The notes under the pieces were generated by a model, which did no database searches, was not told where the DNA came from, and was given only the letters and a program-made list of their open reading frames with translations. This document shows, piece by piece, positions 5,846-61,815 of a stretch of 64,000 bases of DNA (position 1 is the first letter of the stretch; each line of letters begins with the position of its first letter). This DNA is from an uncultured Verrucomicrobiota bacterium (lineage in GTDB: Bacteria > Verrucomicrobiota > Verrucomicrobiia > Limisphaerales > CAZIFU01), in contig CAZIFU010000287.1 in assembly GCA_964539075.1 (NCBI GenBank), positions 15,134 to 79,133 on the forward strand, in the 5' to 3' direction. The translations under genes and the position numbers were made by a program.

Positions 5846-6195
5846 CCCTCACCCCGGCCCTACCCATGAACCTCGCTGGCTGCGCAACGATGCGGCAAGG
5901 AGGCGGGTGATCGAAGTCGCGAAGCGCTTGGAGTGCGCCGGCCCCAGCCGGCGCTTTCCACATCATCAACAGCGCCGACTCGCGTCGGCGCACTCTCCCG
6001 CCTTGCGGGACTGACGCGCGGGCGAAGGCTCCATCCGGTTCAGGGGCACAATTCGTGAACTTCGATTCATGGAATTTCCCCCTGAGGGAGAGGGGGAATC
6101 TTGGCCAGCGTGTTCGCAATCCGAGCGCGCCCGGGTTGGTGTAGGACTGGATACCGTTCTCCCTCTCCCCCTGGGAAAGGATTGGGGTGAGGGCA
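5846..6195. repeat. Nested repeat cluster
   Basis: CCCTCACCCC element interrupted by a CCCATGAACC...GGTTCAGGGG shell (5863-6046) that contains a TTGGAGTGCG-type hairpin pair. Confidence 0.65.
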
Positions 6196-34380: not shown

Positions 34381-34513
34381 GCCCTCACCCCGGCCCTCTC
34401 CCGGCGGGAGAGGGGGAACCGCATCCAGTCGTTCGCAAAACCGTCGCCCCCATACCGCCATCACGCTGGCCATGATTCTCCCTGTCCCTCCGGGAGAGGG
34501 CCGGGGTGAGGGG
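34381..34513. repeat. Inverted pair of CCCTCACCCC-family repeats
   Basis: gccctcaccccggccctctcccggcgggagaggggg and ccctccgggagagggccggggtgaggg. Confidence 0.8.
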
Positions 34514-34546
34514 TTTTGTTTCGCGCGTGTCTGCATGGTCACGGCC

Positions 34547-42152: not shown

Positions 42153-42304
42153 GTAGCCGCCGACGTCAGTCGGCGCACTGCCTTCCCGTCCGAGAACATT
42201 TGGCGCGGACTGACGTCCGCGGCTACCCGGCACCGTAGCCGCCGACGTGAGTCGGCGCTCATCGTTCCTGGCATAAGAGTGCGCCGACTGACGTCGGCGG
42301 CTAC
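42153..42304. repeat. Four GTAG REPs in two inverted pairs
   Basis: GTAGCCGC(C/G)GACGT(C/G)AGTC(G/C)GCGC at 42153, 42203, 42235, 42281. Confidence 0.9.
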
Positions 42305-42428
42305 GGTTCATGTTACCGCGGCGGCGAAATCCATCGTTCCTGGCCCGACTTCAGGCTTGCCAAAACCCGCGCGCTTTGCTTCCATGCAACCAAGCAAACT
42401 CCAACCCACCTTCAACCGGAGAAATACC

Positions 42429-43344: not shown

Positions 43345-43501
43345 GTAGCCGCCGACGTCAGTCGGCGCACTTCCTTCCCGCCGGAGAAACCTTGGCGCGG
43401 ACTGACGTCCGCGGCTACCGCGCGCCGTAGCCGCCGACGTTAGTCGGCGCAGTCTTTCCCCCTCACCCGAAAAATCAGCGCGGACTCACGTCCGCGGCTA
43501 C
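43345..43501. repeat. Four GTAG REPs in two inverted pairs
   Basis: Copies at 43345, 43395, 43427, 43478. Confidence 0.9.
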
Positions 43502-43506
43502 GAGGG

Positions 43507-44133
43507 CTATTCCATCTCGCGCGGCGGGAGGATCCGTTGCTCGATACCCGGTTCGCGCACCGACAAGTAGTGCTTCCAAAACCACGGCCAGTAATCCGGC
43601 TCGAAGGGATTCAATCGCGGATACCCCGGCACGACCGCACCCAGATACGGCCAGTCCGGCGGCGCCTTCACCAGCCCGCCCTTGAACGGATTGAGCAGCA
43701 CGTAATCCGCGCAGGCGAGGCTGAACGCGCGCCGTTGCCGCTCCTCCGCCGTGAGCACGTGATCGTGCGGCTGATGCTGGAACTTCGCCGGCTTGAGGAA
43801 CGGACCGAGTTGCGCGCGGAGAAACTTCATCCCGTTGCGCTGGTCGGCCTGCTTGCGGATGCCCATCCAGACAAGATGAACGTGGTTGGGCATGAGGCAA
43901 TAGGCCGGGCAGAGCAATCCCTCGCGGGCGGCGGCATGAAGCATCATCTCGCGAAAGGCGGCGTGGAAGGAATGGTCCAGCCAGCCCGATTGGCGATGCG
44001 CCACGGGCAGGGTCCAGAAGACCACGGCGTCGGCCTGGTAAAACTCGCGCTTCAACCGCGGGAGATAGTGGGAGAACGAGGAGCGTGGCTTGCGCTCGTC
44101 AGGGTTTGGGGAACCACCGGATGGATCGGGCAT
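43507..44133 (-). mobile_element. REP-associated tyrosine transposase (RAYT, Y1/HUH family)
   Basis: AYCLMPNHVHL HUH motif, DYVLLNP...GL catalytic Tyr, DWPY; flanked on both sides by GTAG REPs. Confidence 0.88.
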
Positions 44134-44146
44134 GGGCGGGAGATTA

Positions 44147-44202
44147 GCGCGGACTTACGTCCGCGGCTACGCCGCGTCGTAGCCGCCGACGTGAGTCGGC
44201 GC
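44147..44202. repeat. Two GTAG REPs upstream of the RAYT
   Basis: Copies at 44147-44170 and 44179-44202. Confidence 0.88.
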
Positions 44203-47285: not shown

Positions 47286-50030
47286 ATGGCCGAATCGCCT
47301 TCTATTTCAACCGCGGCTCTCGAAGCGGAAACCATTCCGCACTCCGCACTCCGCACTCCGCATTTCCCCGAACTGCTCGCCCCGGCCGGCGATTGGGAGT
47401 GCGCCCGCGCGGCCGTCGAGAACGGCGCCGACGCAATCTACTTCGGCCTGGAAAAGTTCAACGCCCGGATGCGCGCGCGCAATTTCACCGGGACGGACCT
47501 GCCCAGGTTGATGGAGTTTCTCCACCGCCGAGGTGTGAAGGGCTACGTCACTTTCAATACGCTCGTCTTCGCCAATGAGCTGGCCGAGGCGACGCAATAC
47601 CTGCGCGCCATCATCGCCGCCGGCGTGGACGCCGCCATCGTGCAGGACGTGGGCATCTGCCGGCTGATCCGGCGCCTCTCACCCGATTTCCCGATTCACG
47701 CGAGCACGCAGATGACGATCACCAGCGCCGCCGGCGTGGAGTTCGCGCGCGAACTGGGCTGCCACCTGGTCGTGCTGGCGCGGGAGAATTCGTTGAAGGA
47801 AATCGAGAAGATTCAAGAGGCACAGCGCGCTTCGTTCGGAGTCCAGCCTTCAGGCTGTTCCTCCGCGCCCGGACAGCCTGAAGGCTGGACTCCGAACTTG
47901 CCGCTCGAGGTGTTCGTCCACGGCGCGCTCTGCGTGGCCTACTCGGGCCAATGTCTCACCAGCGAGGCGCTGGGCGGCCGCAGCGCCAATCGCGGCGAAT
48001 GCGCGCAGGCCTGCCGGATGCCCTACGAGTTGATCTCCGACGGCAACCGGATTCCCCTCGGCGACAAAAAATATCTCCTCAGCCCGCAAGACCTCGCCGG
48101 GCTGGAAGTATTGTCCGAACTGGTCCGTCTCGGCGTCGCTTCACTCAAGATCGAAGGCCGCCTCAAGTCGCCCGAATACGTGGCCGGCATCACGCGCGTT
48201 TACCGCCAGGCGCTGGATGATTTACGATTTACGATTTACGATTTACGAGAATCGCGAAGTTCGGAAGCTGTGGCCGAAACCAGCCCGGCGCGTAAATCGC
48301 AAATCGTAAATCGTCAATACGAGATGGAGATGTCCTTCTCGCGCGGCCTCTCCACCGGCTGGTTCCGTGGCAACGACCACCAGGCGCTCGTCCACGCCCG
48401 ATTCGGCAAGAAACGCGGCGTGTCTCTCGGCGAAGTCACCCGCGTGCTGCACGACGCCGTGGTCGTCCGCCTCGCCGGCCCGCTCAAGCCCGGCGACGGC
48501 ATCGTGTTCGACGCCGGCCATCCCGAAGAGAAAGAGGCGGGCGGGCGGGTCTTCAAGGTTCAAAGTGCAAAGCGCAACGTTCAAGGTTCGCCCCAGGCCA
48601 CCGTGACCTTCGGCCGTGGCGCAGTGGATTTCACCCGCGTCCACGTCGGCGACAAGGTTTGGAAGACGAGCGACCCGGAACTTGACCGCCGCCTGCGCCG
48701 GACGTTTGCAGGCGACGTGCCGAGGTTTCAACGGCCGATTCACCTCGAAGTCCACGGCCACGCTGGCGCGCCACTCACGCTCATCGCCGGTGACGAGCCT
48801 GGCCACATCGTGCAGATCGCCTCGACGGTGCCGCTCGCACCGGCCGAAAAGCAGCCGCTGACGACCGAGCGCCTGACCGGGCAACTGGGCCGTCTTGGCG
48901 GCACGCCCTTCACGCTCGGGGATTTGCACAACCACCTCGAAGGCGACGTCATCCTGCCGGTCCGCGAACTCAACGCGCTCCGCCGCGCAGCCGTGGCGCA
49001 ATTGGAGGCGCTCCGCGCTCAGCCGAAGCGGTGGACGCTGAACGAATGTGGAATGCGGAATGCGGAATGCGGAATAGAGCACAACGGGTCTCACGAATCC
49101 AAAATTCCGCGCCCCGCCCTCCGCGCTCCGCAGTTGATCGTCTTGGTCCGCTCGCTCGCCCAACTGGAGTCCGCGTTGCGCTGCGGCGTCGAAACGGTCT
49201 ATTGCGAATTCGCGGACCCGAAGAAATACCGCGAGGCCGTCACGCTCTTCCACACCGCGCGCGGCTGCGCTGTTTCCCAAGACCCCAAATCCCAGACCCC
49301 ATCCCCTTCAATCTGGGTGGCTCCTCCGCGCATCACCAAGCCGGGCGAGGAATGGATTCTCCAGCAAGTCCGCTCCTGCAACGCCGACGGCTACCTCGTC
49401 CGCAACTATGATCACCTGAAGTTTTTTGCGGGCTGCCGGCGCATCGGCGACTTCTCGCTCAACGTCGCGAACCCGCTCACGGCGGAATACTTCAAGGAGA
49501 AGTTCGGCCTGGAGCGCGTCACGGCCTCCTATGACCTGAACATCACGCAGCTCGAAGCGCTGCTGCGCGCCGCGCCGCCGGAATGGTTTGAGGTGACGAT
49601 TCACCAGCACATGCCGATGTTTCACATGGAGCACTGCGTCTTCTGCGCGTTCCTCTCCACCGGCAAGGACTACCGCGATTGCGGCCGCCCCTGCGACAAG
49701 CACGACGTGAAGCTCCGCGACCGTGTGGGCATGGAACACCCGCTCAAGGCCGACGTGGGCTGTCGCAACACCGTCTTCAACGCGCGCGCCCAGACGGGCG
49801 CCGAGTTCATCGAACCTCTCCTGGCGATCGGGGCGCGTCATTTTCGCATCGAATTCGTCAACGAATCGCCCGTCGAAGTGGCGCGCACGATCACGCAGTA
49901 TCGCGCGTTGTTGCGCGGCGAAATCACCGGCGCGCGACTTTGGCAGGAGTTGAAGTTGATCAACCAGCTCGGCGTCACCCGCGGCCAGTTGGATCAGACC
50001 GAAGTGCGCAAGGTGGTGCCGAAAGCGTAG
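47286..50030 (+). CDS. Peptidase U32-family Fe-S protein with DUF3656-like region (RlhA-like RNA hydroxylase), six in-frame repeat inserts
   Basis: ELLAPAG, FNARMRA, HASTQ, HGALCVAYSGQC, NRGECAQACR, SLKIEGR. Confidence 0.88.
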   Translation: MAESPSISTAALEAETIPHSALRTPHFPELLAPAGDWECARAAVENGADAIYFGLEKFNARMRARNFTGTDLPRLMEFLHRRGVKGYVTFNTLVFANELAEATQYLRAIIAAGVDAAIVQDVGICRLIRRLSPDFPIHASTQMTITSAAGVEFARELGCHLVVLARENSLKEIEKIQEAQRASFGVQPSGCSSAPGQPEGWTPNLPLEVFVHGALCVAYSGQCLTSEALGGRSANRGECAQACRMPYELISDGNRIPLGDKKYLLSPQDLAGLEVLSELVRLGVASLKIEGRLKSPEYVAGITRVYRQALDDLRFTIYDLRESRSSEAVAETSPARKSQIVNRQYEMEMSFSRGLSTGWFRGNDHQALVHARFGKKRGVSLGEVTRVLHDAVVVRLAGPLKPGDGIVFDAGHPEEKEAGGRVFKVQSAKRNVQGSPQATVTFGRGAVDFTRVHVGDKVWKTSDPELDRRLRRTFAGDVPRFQRPIHLEVHGHAGAPLTLIAGDEPGHIVQIASTVPLAPAEKQPLTTERLTGQLGRLGGTPFTLGDLHNHLEGDVILPVRELNALRRAAVAQLEALRAQPKRWTLNECGMRNAECGIEHNGSHESKIPRPALRAPQLIVLVRSLAQLESALRCGVETVYCEFADPKKYREAVTLFHTARGCAVSQDPKSQTPSPSIWVAPPRITKPGEEWILQQVRSCNADGYLVRNYDHLKFFAGCRRIGDFSLNVANPLTAEYFKEKFGLERVTASYDLNITQLEALLRAAPPEWFEVTIHQHMPMFHMEHCVFCAFLSTGKDYRDCGRPCDKHDVKLRDRVGMEHPLKADVGCRNTVFNARAQTGAEFIEPLLAIGARHFRIEFVNESPVEVARTITQYRALLRGEITGARLWQELKLINQLGVTRGQLDQTEVRKVVPKA

Positions 50031-59598: not shown

Positions 59599-61815
59599 TC
59601 AACGCACGGCGCGTTTGCGTTTGCCGCCGCGCGGGTAGCGGACTTTGACAGGGGCGGCGGGCGACTGCATTCCCAGTGCACCGCGTTTGAGTTCGTTGAT
59701 CTGATCGCGGAGCAGCGCGGCTTTTTCGAACTCCAGGTTGTTGGCGGCTTCGAGCATTTCGGCTTCGAGTTCGCGGAGGGTCTCGGTCACGTCGAAGTTG
59801 CCGCCGGCTTCGTTGATCACGGCCGCGGCGCGGGCGGAGCCTTCGCGATACACCGCCAGGCTGTCCTCGACGGCGCGGCTGACGCTGCGCGGGGTGATGT
59901 GGTGCTCGCGGTTGTAGGCGAGCTGCTTCTCGCGGCGGTAGTTGGAAATGGCCAGAAACTTTTGAATGCTCTGCGTCATCACGTCGGCGTAAAGGATCAC
60001 TTCACCGTTCAGATGGCGTGCGGCGCGGCCGGCGGTCTGAATCAAACTCGTCTCGCTCCGGAGAAAACCTTCCTTGTCAGCGTCGAGAATGGCGACGAGC
60101 GACACCTCCGGCAGATCGAGGCCTTCGCGCAGCAGGTTGATGCCGACGAGCACGTCGAACTCGCCCTTGCGGAGCCCGCGCAGAATCTCGACACGCTCGA
60201 TGGCGTCAATCTCGCTGTGCAGGTAACGGACGTTGATGCCGATGTCGCGGAGGTAATCGGTCAGTTCCTCGGCGGTGCGCTTGGTCAGCGTGGTGACGAG
60301 CACGCGCTCTTTTTGCTCGACCCGTTTGCGCGCCTCGTTGATGAGGTCATCAATCTGGCCCTTGAGCGGTTTGACGGTGATGACCGGGTCCACCAGGCCG
60401 GTGGGGCGGACGACCTGTTCGACGACGCCGGAATTTCCACTGCCCAGGCCCTCGCTTTGCGGGACCACCCTCTCCCCACCCGATGGGGAGAGGGACGGGG
60501 TGAGGGGTGCTCTTGTTTCTTCCGTAGCAGCCGACGTGAGGAGGCTCTGATCAATGTCCTTTGAAGAATGAGCCTCCTCACGTCGGCTGCTACGAACTTG
60601 AAGGGCACTCTCCCCTGCCCATTGAATTTCCCGACCGCCTGGCGTGGCGCTGACATAAATGGTCTGGTTCTGGTGGCCTTGAAACTCGCCGAAGTTCAGG
60701 GGGCGATTGTCGAGCGCGCTGGGGAGCCGGAAACCGTGCTCGACGAGGACGGTCTTGCGCGAGCGGTCGCCTTCGTACATCCCGCCGATCTGCGGGACGG
60801 TGGCGTGCGACTCGTCAATCACAAGCAGGAAATCCGGCGGGAAAAATTCCATCAAGGTGCAGGGCCGCGAACCGGCCGGCCGGCCGGTGATGTGGCGCGA
60901 ATAATTTTCAATGCCGGAACAAAAGCCCATCTCCTCCATCATCTCCAGGTCGTACTCGGTGCGCATCTTGACGCGCTGGGCTTCAAGCAGTTTGCCGTGC
61001 TTTTCGAACCACGCGATGCGGTCGCCCAGTTCCTCGCGGATGGTCAGGACGGCGCGCTTTGTTTTTTCAGCGGGCGTGACGAATTGTTTGCCGGGGAAAA
61101 CGGTGACCACTTCCAGGCCCTCGATTTTGTCACCGGTGAGCGGCTCGAAGCGGGTCAGGCGCTCCACCCGGTCGCCGAAAAACTCGATGCGCAACGCGTC
61201 TTCCACGTAGGCGGGGCACAGTTCGACGGTGTCGCCGCGCACGCGGAACTGGCCGCGGGTGAACTCGATGTCGTTGCGGTTGTATTGCAGGTCCACCAAA
61301 CGGAGGAGGAACTGGTCGCGGGTCAGTTCCTGGCCGGCGCGCAAGTGGACGAGCATCGTCTCGTAATCCTCCCGGCTGCCGATGCCATAGATGCACGAGA
61401 CGCTGGCGACCACGATCACGTCGCGTCGCGCGAAGAGCGAACTCATCGTCGAGAGCCGCATCCGCTCGATCTCCTCGTTCACGCTGGAATCCTTCTCGAT
61501 GAAGGTGTCGGTGCGCGGGATGTAGGCTTCGGGCTGGTAATAATCGAAATAACTCACGAAATACTCGACGGCGTTGCGCGGAAAAAAACTTTTGAATTCG
61601 GCGTAAAGCTGCGCCGCGAGCGTCTTGTTGTGCGAGATGACGAGCGTGGGCTTGTTTACGTTTTGGATGGCATTGGCGATGGTGAAGGTCTTGCCGGAGC
61701 CGGTGACGCCGAGCAGCACCTGATGCTTCGCGCCGGACAACAGCCCCTCGGTCAGCTTCGCAATCGCTTGCGGCTGGTCACCGGCGGGCGCGTATGGGGC
61801 GACGAGTTCGAACAT
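59599..61815 (-). CDS. uvrB: Excinuclease ABC subunit B with ~60-aa repeat-derived insert
   Basis: [50 protein letters not shown]-terminal UVR domain. Confidence 0.97.
60459..60593. repeat. In-frame GTAG REP hairpin plus CCCTCACCCC element inside uvrB
   Basis: Perfect 23-bp arms at 60524-60546 and 60571-60593; second element at about 60461-60507. Confidence 0.9.

Follow-up and report, generated by a model that had tools for sequence, protein, structure and literature searches.

In-frame residence of REP-type hairpin repeats in the linker between the motor domains of UvrB in an uncultured Verrucomicrobiota bacterium

RESULTS

A uvrB gene with an in-frame insert between its motor domains

The DNA analyzed here (the window) is a stretch of 64,000 nt from contig CAZIFU010000287.1 (assembly GCA_964539075.1) of an uncultured Verrucomicrobiota bacterium, and all coordinates are given relative to this window. 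Within it lies an intact uvrB gene that carries, in its reading frame, an insert composed of two hairpin repeats, termed here elements A and B (Table 1). The predicted protein was found to match UvrB of Bacillus caldotenax in the PDB (phmmer, E-value 5e-256) and to display the full set of Pfam domains (ResIII/DEAD, UvrB_inter, Helicase_C, UvrB, and UVR). The phmmer alignment was split in two, with residues 2-398 of the query corresponding to residues 5-402 of the B. caldotenax protein and residues 462-711 to residues 405-656. The gap from residue 398 to 462 left about 60 residues without a counterpart in the solved UvrB structures, which have only a 2-3-residue junction of domains 1a and 3 at this position. 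In a similar manner, the interval from SATP to RPTG spanned 85 residues compared with 24-25 in UvrBs that lack an insert. The insert was positioned directly after helicase motif III (SAT), at the junction of domains 1a and 3, and was found to consist, in the orientation of the gene, of a lead encoding ESALQV, element A, a 15-nt spacer, and element B. No stop codon was detected across its 180 nt, the sequence on either side was of coding-type GC content at third codon positions (GC3), and the Helicase_C, UvrB, and UVR domains were all located C-terminal of the insert. Residues invariant over 96 orthologues were all retained, including those of the Walker A (GSGKT), DExH, SAT, and GRAAR motifs. 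An earlier note on this DNA had described about 60 extra codons at 60431-60613, with the frame and the downstream motifs intact, and had placed them inside the helicase core of UvrB; the extra codons (exactly 60, at 60433-60612) and the intact frame and motifs were borne out, while the position is corrected to the linker that joins the two RecA-like domains, with no folded core interrupted.

Table 1. Coordinates of uvrB, its insert, and related repeat features in the window
Feature	Coordinates	Strand	Basis or remarks
uvrB coding sequence, 738 aa, intact	59599..61815	-	List of open reading frames (ORFs); PDB phmmer E 5e-256; Pfam
In-frame insert, 180 nt, aa 402-461, linker of domains 1a/3	60433..60612	-	PDB alignment gap; linker 85 vs 25 aa
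Element A, GTAG REP doublet (REPIN-like hairpin)	60523..60594		Arms 60523-60547 and 60570-60594; loop 60548-60569
Element B, decayed CCCTCACCCC/GGGAGAGGG-type hairpin repeat	60436..60508		Family D5; codon-level comparison with P0087 and P0002
Element B copy	34477..34514		Family D5
Element B copies	2230-2267; 6158-6195		Family D5
RAYT-like Y1/HUH transposase ORF, 208 aa, divergent	43507..44133	-	NCBIfam NF047646; PDB 4ER8
GTAG REP cluster, sister subfamily (GTAGCCGCSGACGTSAGTCSGCGC)	42153..42307		
GTAG REP cluster flanking the RAYT-like ORF	43345..43501		
GTAG REPs, other side of the RAYT-like ORF	44138..44202		Families D1, D3, D8

Element A is a doublet of GTAG repetitive extragenic palindromic (REP) sequences

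In the orientation of the gene, element A reads CGTAGCAGCCGACGTGAGGAGGCTC, a 22-nt loop, and GAGCCTCCTCACGTCGGCTGCTACG. Its arms of 25 nt were found to be 100% complementary and to end in CGTAGC and GCTACG, with GTAG placed outermost in each REP; element A is composed of two REPs in inverted orientation that are separated by a short spacer and able to form one long hairpin. The predicted DNA fold was -35.6 kcal/mol (z -11.7), and no arm match of this kind would be expected by chance in the window. When examined by eye, the uvrB arm (AGCCGAC GTGA GGAGGCT) displayed only 4 bp of internal pairing compared with internal stems of 6-7 bp in the sister REP subfamily, as represented by the REPs flanking the ORF of the window that resembles a REP-associated tyrosine transposase (RAYT) and by P0073 (AGCGGAC GTGA GTCCGCT). 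The arm shared 20 of 24 bases with those flanking REPs and with the REPs of the cluster at 42153-42307. The hairpin had previously been described as perfect, headed by GTAG, with 23-bp arms, and related to the REPs of the RAYT; all of this stood (the relationship by the GTAG head, the 20 of 24 shared bases, and the exact arm found at RAYT genes in L006, L090, and L094), except for the arm length, which is corrected to 25 nt. Two further features of element A were recorded. In the mRNA sense, a Shine-Dalgarno-like GGAGG on one arm pairs with CCUCC on the other, and no start codon is found at a suitable distance after it. The loops of element A often hold a variable number of 7-nt TCCGAAR units (L014-type loops, e.g., L119:2125-4287 = P0014, L089, L101, and L114), which yield peptides such as KSEVRSPKSEI and SEIRNPKSEI; the TCCGAAG unit was seen as DNA only in P0014, and the copy in the uvrB of the window is of the short loop form.

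GTAG REP doublets of the REPIN-like kind are mobilized in trans by RAYTs. The divergent RAYT-like ORF of the window matched the NCBIfam profile of these transposases (NF047646, E-value 1e-13) over profile positions 3-145 of 146, as well as TnpA-REP of Escherichia coli (PDB 4ER8, E-value 5.5e-4); it had no match in Pfam. A RAYT homologue 61% identical to this ORF was identified in L006 with the exact uvrB arm variant on both sides in inverted orientation, and the exact arm variant also adjoined RAYT homologues in L090 and L094. The assignment of element A to a REP doublet family served by a RAYT is supported because its exact arm variant flanks or adjoins RAYT homologues in these three stretches.

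Element B, a decayed copy of another hairpin repeat

The inner hairpin of element B (CCCTCTCCCCA/TGGGGAGAGGG, 11 bp, 60468-60494) and one outer arm (GACGGGGTGAGGGG, 60495-60508) were intact. The partner outer arm (60436-60467) displayed several substitutions and a 10-nt insertion when compared with the intact copy at the same place in P0087 and with the copy in P0002. Because this arm is mutated relative to those copies, element B is regarded as the older, decayed part of the insert. The element was one of a family of four copies in the window, located at 2230, 6158, 34477, and 60471; thus, the CCCTCACCCC element that the earlier note had pointed out in the insert was confirmed as a real, though decayed, hairpin repeat with three further copies in the window.

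The insert is present in metagenomic reads

The insert was examined in Logan unitigs of two freshwater-sediment metagenome runs (X1 and X2); these runs may be the source of the assembly, in which case the check is independent of the assembler and drawn from the same sample. Unitigs of X1 and X2 covered positions 60279-60550 and 60569-60952 with 0 mismatches and at a flank-like depth of 12-16. They ran from unique uvrB sequence into the insert at both junctions, and the loop was spanned by a 64-nt unitig. No unitig or contig that joined the flanks of the insert directly was found in either run. When depth was summed over unitigs, the A arms reached 1000-2600 and the A arms together with element B 500-2600, compared with 12-16 in the flanks, in keeping with repeats that abound in that community. 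The earlier note had named absence from the reads as a reason to give up the insert; instead, both junctions were present in two runs.

Predicted structure and RNA features of the insert

A model of the protein built by AlphaFold2 (AF2) with 96 sequences had a mean predicted local distance difference test (pLDDT) score of 72.3 and a predicted template modeling score of 0.71, and its top Foldseek matches were UvrB structures. Residues 394-424 were predicted to form one long helix (pLDDT 85-91) that extends from the native REIQW through the lead of the insert, the first A arm, and the loop to the first residue of the second arm. Disorder (pLDDT <50) was predicted for residues 427-459, which correspond to most of the second A arm, the spacer, and element B. 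Structure prediction, a check proposed with the earlier note, thus placed the insert in the linker of domains 1a and 3 as a helix followed by disorder, with moderate confidence. No Pfam domain was detected in residues 399-461. At the RNA level, the insert was predicted to fold at -117.9 kcal/mol (z -9.5); Rfam yielded only sub-threshold matches to generic microRNA hairpins, and a scan of terminators and promoters gave no signal beyond chance. Two other candidates for the nature of the insert were rejected: (i) a target-site duplication, GAATTTCC at 60431 and 60624, as the frame is lost when the 193 nt between the copies are removed and chance alone would produce an 8-mer repeat within 300 nt; and (ii) an intein or mini-intein, as the HINT fold needs at least about 130 residues, an N-terminal Cys or Ser, and a C-terminal His-Asn, and the insert has 60 residues, starts with Glu, and has no His-Asn.

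The same linker is occupied by diverse repeats in UvrB orthologues

The linker was compared among the best 120 UvrB homologues, which were 73-85% identical to the window protein and, where named, were mostly labelled Verrucomicrobiota or Limisphaerales. It exceeded the 25-residue baseline in 59 of these 120, by 3-69 residues. In an alignment of 96 sequences, the linker was the sole internal site with insertions of at least 6 residues, and 45 sequences had one. Judged on their peptides, the linker inserts represented at least eight recognizable repeat families: A (two subtypes), B (in three reading frames), RRDACPT/GVPPVS, PPEGGTPN, KLKLELQ, GILPA..GRMPAAT, FREKA..LPSAAT, and one more; further families were gained from a second orthologue search. 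The RRDACPT/GVPPVS peptides resemble GTAG-19 peptides of Opitutus terrae (supplement of Di Nocera, De Gregorio, and Rocco, 2013, BMC Genomics 14:522; PMC3733652).

On an IQ-TREE phylogeny built without the insert, at least 14 changes in the presence or absence of an insert were counted, with deep nodes weakly supported. By family, 9 changes were found for 9 carriers of A, 8 for 8 carriers of C, and 8 for 15 carriers of B; families A and C were never common to sister sequences. The well-supported sisters P0051 and P0053 formed a clean filled/empty pair, with a 99-nt REP doublet between EW-x-Q and GVVEQ. The A+B arrangement of the window, including its spacer, recurred in P0002 and P0011, so it is considered to be partly inherited, and the perfect A arms look young or renewed. 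To avoid selecting for intact ORFs, 80 uvrB loci were ascertained by DNA patterns downstream of the linker, and among these the long linkers were in frame and free of stop codons in 13 of 13 cases. A query in which a RAYT was nested in UvrB (UvrB-RAYT-UvrB) was also used; among 8000 scored candidates no complete RAYT nested in the UvrB linker was found, and the best non-self matches, at no more than 291 bits, were plain UvrBs of 531-777 residues.

Longer linkers were also seen in more distant proteins. A second UvrB clade (L130-L137, 58-64% identical) displayed a conserved 35-70-residue extension of the same linker, ..NSVVGNKGYIPHRRQRIGEEE..EKFD..PGAPLIVEQ, with a variable middle that by eye contains repeat-like peptides. 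L170, of an unrelated lineage, had a VIPAKAGIQ-type insert at the same linker.

The REP family is widespread and often resides in frame in other genes

The distribution of the REP family was examined by a scan with the 22-mer arm GTAGCNGCCGACGTGAGGAGGC in one genome per species. The arm was detected in at least 118 stretches, the records of which were mostly named as Verrucomicrobiota metagenome-assembled genomes (MAGs) and included Limisphaerales, subdivision 3, and a Pedosphaera-labelled MAG among the listed matches. Among these matches, neither a uvrB nor the genome of the window itself was represented. The exact 22-nt arm was identical in MAGs with UvrB proteins that differ by at least 20% (L001-L118 scan); the arm is far more conserved than neutral DNA, and the family is renewed or constrained, presumably by its transposase. 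Several of the records (L002, L007, L008, L029, L057, L074, and L079) are titled Bifidobacterium, Klebsiella, or Akkermansia muciniphila and look like mislabelled bins.

A copy was called intragenic when it lay in a stop-free frame with coding-type GC3 over at least 80 codons on each side. By this definition, at least 22 of 103 classifiable copies among the listed matches were intragenic and in frame. Ten hosts were confirmed by Pfam, namely HrpB (in two species), IleRS, ValRS, RecN, a NuoE-NuoF fusion, XseA, a class-III aminotransferase, an NtrC-like activator, and GatB, with the REP copies within or between the Pfam domains of these proteins. Depending on the host, the same REP DNA was translated in at least three frame combinations, with peptides such as SRREEA..LLTSAAT and ASSRRLL. 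As the reading frame of the element varies with the host, it is the DNA, and not the peptide, that is conserved. Hairpin length gave no signal of being a multiple of three when intragenic (5 of 12 intragenic doublets vs 18 of 46 others), and the frame must therefore be restored by the flanks.

HrpB, another superfamily 2 (SF2) helicase, was observed to repeat the pattern of UvrB. In HrpB of L004 (1371-4046, - strand) and L117 (3-1625, - strand), which are from different MAGs, different repeat families occupied the same two positions: (i) just after motif III (SAT), a B-type repeat in L004 and an A-type repeat in L117; and (ii) before the HA2 ratchet, an A-type repeat in L004 and an RDARAP-type repeat in L117.

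DISCUSSION

Probable tolerance of the insert in a permissive linker

We consider it highly probable that the insert is selfish DNA that is tolerated and translated in a permissive linker of UvrB. Two non-autonomous hairpin repeats would have inserted into the short stretch linking the two RecA-like motor domains of the protein, with element A (and B) mobilized by a RAYT. The stop-free 180 nt would then be transcribed and translated together with uvrB and give rise to a 60-residue excursion at the protein surface, in which a helical extension leads into a disordered loop. The intact frame in 13 of 13 long linkers among the DNA-ascertained loci lends indirect support to such expression. The peptide itself would be a by-product, and the linker would tolerate almost any in-frame sequence. 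Inside a needed gene only precise in-frame deletions could remove the element, and such sites would be expected to collect and exchange repeats over time. The decorated UvrB probably still works, because the insert leaves the ATPase, beta-hairpin, UvrA-binding, and UvrC-binding parts intact and the invariant residues are kept.

Several observations weigh against this explanation: (i) the exact arm variant has only one copy in the 64-kb window, and the RAYT-like ORF of the window, which scores 51 bits against the curated cut-off of 80 for NF047646, is flanked by the sister REP variant and not by that of uvrB; (ii) the perfect arms of element A (25 of 25) lie beside a decayed element B, so that the doublet is either much younger or kept perfect by some other cause; (iii) the AF2 model is only moderate (pLDDT 72), with a root-mean-square deviation of about 12 Å to crystal structures and a domain arrangement that is not trustworthy; and (iv) in one soil metatranscriptome (X24) only pieces 90-95% identical, from other organisms, were detected.

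Alternative explanations

A co-opted insert was considered as an alternative and appears unlikely. In this case the perfect mRNA stem of 25-27 bp would be regulatory, as an RNase III target or as a translation pause between domains, or the helical extension would give UvrB a new property. Consistent with such a role are the perfect state of the stem while the adjacent element B has decayed, the very stable predicted RNA fold, the confident AF2 helix at residues 394-424, and the common start R(E/Q)SA.. and end ..PGV of insert-bearing orthologues whichever repeat lies between; Di Nocera et al. also speculate that REPs in repair genes change gene activity (PMC3733652). However, close relatives carry different repeat families at the site, and many relatives lack an insert, so no given sequence or structure is required; moreover, other host proteins read the element in different frames, and neither an Rfam match nor a terminator or promoter signal beyond chance was detected for the insert.

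It is even less plausible that the insert cripples UvrB and that the lineage is a partial excision-repair mutant, in line with the mutator idea of Di Nocera et al. Though the insertion lies between two ATPase domains that drive the enzyme by moving relative to each other, and the AF2 domain arrangement is unlike that of the crystal structures, all residues invariant in the 96-sequence alignment are kept and the flanks are of coding-type GC3. In addition, across an order, inserts of 3-69 residues persist in frame in roughly half of the orthologues, and the rest of the protein is 73-85% identical, which points to purifying selection on a working gene.

An assembly artefact, in which the repeat was wrongly joined into uvrB, is scarcely credible: although the metagenome contains many copies of the arms and these interrupt the unitigs, two runs yielded unitigs, produced by a different assembler, that enter the insert from both sides with 0 mismatches and flank-like depth, no contig links the flanks directly, and the same A+B arrangement is found at the same codon in independent assemblies of the relatives P0002 and P0011.

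The linker as a recurrent insertion site

The tolerated-insert explanation may also account for the hotspot appearance of the linker, as the linker would be permissive and only precise in-frame deletions could clear an element; the evidence is compatible alike with tolerance and with a true target preference at this site. A bolder proposal, which we put forward only tentatively and regard as doubtful, is that the linker of domains 1a and 3 is a preferred and long-lived harbour for REP-type hairpins, with unrelated families entering or replacing one another at the same codon across Limisphaerales-like Verrucomicrobiota. Linker inserts, some with repeat-like peptides, are also found in at least two other bacterial lineages (L130-L137 and L170), and REP-type inserts are present in HrpB at the corresponding linker after motif III. 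If the proposal were true, the mobilizing machinery would have a target preference for the DNA of the linker or for an existing hairpin; alternatively, hairpins hidden in needed genes would be selected, since imprecise deletion there is lethal.

Relationship to known systems

Residence of GTAG REPs inside genes has been described before, with the peak number found in the verrucomicrobium O. terrae (Di Nocera et al., 2013; PMC3733652). In that survey, replication and excision-repair genes were frequent hosts, the latter being over-represented and including uvrA of O. terrae and Thioalkalivibrio and uvrB of Rickettsia conorii, different REPs were found at about the same site of recB in two Xanthomonas species, and the authors remarked that intragenic REP insertions may sit in flexible linkers (PMC3733652). 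The tie between a RAYT/REP system and insertion in a conserved DNA-repair protein, as drawn in the earlier note, is therefore supported here, and the link of REPs to excision repair was already known (PMC3733652). The elements are alike in being GTAG-headed palindromes, single or dimeric, that reside in frame in genes for known proteins. In contrast, the UvrB linker of domains 1a and 3 was not among the sites reported from the few dozen complete genomes of the survey, and most of the inserts described there were of 20-30 residues (PMC3733652), whereas that of the window is a 60-residue composite of two families, at a site that at least eight families occupy in about half of an order's orthologues.

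Compared with the REPIN-RAYT system (Bertels and Rainey, 2011, PMC3116915; TnpA-REP, 4ER8), element A has the same arrangement of two inverted REPs that with a short spacer form one long hairpin, and, as L006 shows for the uvrB arm variant, the same REPs lie on both sides of a single-copy Y1 transposase gene. Unlike classic REPINs, which are almost wholly extragenic and lineage-specific, the 22-mer arm of uvrB is identical across many divergent MAGs, about one fifth of its copies are in frame in genes, and, judged by eye, each arm of the uvrB copy seems to have lost most of the internal palindrome of single REPs.

The Rickettsia palindromic elements (RPEs; Ogata et al., 2000, 2002, as cited in PMC3733652) are likewise palindromic repeats in frame in conserved proteins, where they are translated, exposed at the surface, and away from active sites (as cited in PMC3733652). 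The uvrB of the window similarly carries an in-frame, stop-free insert in a conserved protein outside its catalytic motifs, a likeness in how the element works and not in sequence kinship. RPEs differ in that they have no sequence relationship to the present elements, lack the GTAG head, reside in an obligate intracellular alphaproteobacterium, and are mostly inherited at a site and not exchanged between families.

The kind of insert is thus already known, and the single case is ordinary: it adds another REP-decorated repair protein to a phylum in which many were known before. What is added here is how extensively one site has been reused (in about half of an order's orthologues, by at least eight families, and through at least 14 events), and reuse to this extent at one site was not found described in the literature. 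The UvrB linker offers a natural record, at a single codon position, of in-frame insertions, replacements, and near-precise losses that arose independently dozens of times. This record could reveal how REPs and REPINs choose and retain their sites, how far the inter-domain linker of a helicase can be stretched, and at what rate selfish DNA becomes protein. For annotation, peptides such as RRDACPT in the housekeeping proteins of these MAGs should be regarded as derived from repeats and not as domains.

A second repeat-decorated gene in the window

The window includes a second gene decorated with repeats, an ORF of 914 residues (47286-50030, + strand) that by eye is similar to U32-family peptidases. 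Two in-frame hairpin repeats were observed in this ORF, at 47834-47897 (peptide QPSGCSSAPGQPEGWTPN) and 48220-48318, with coding-type flanks, and by eye it also contains repeat peptides of the HSALRTPH and ECGMRNAECG types.

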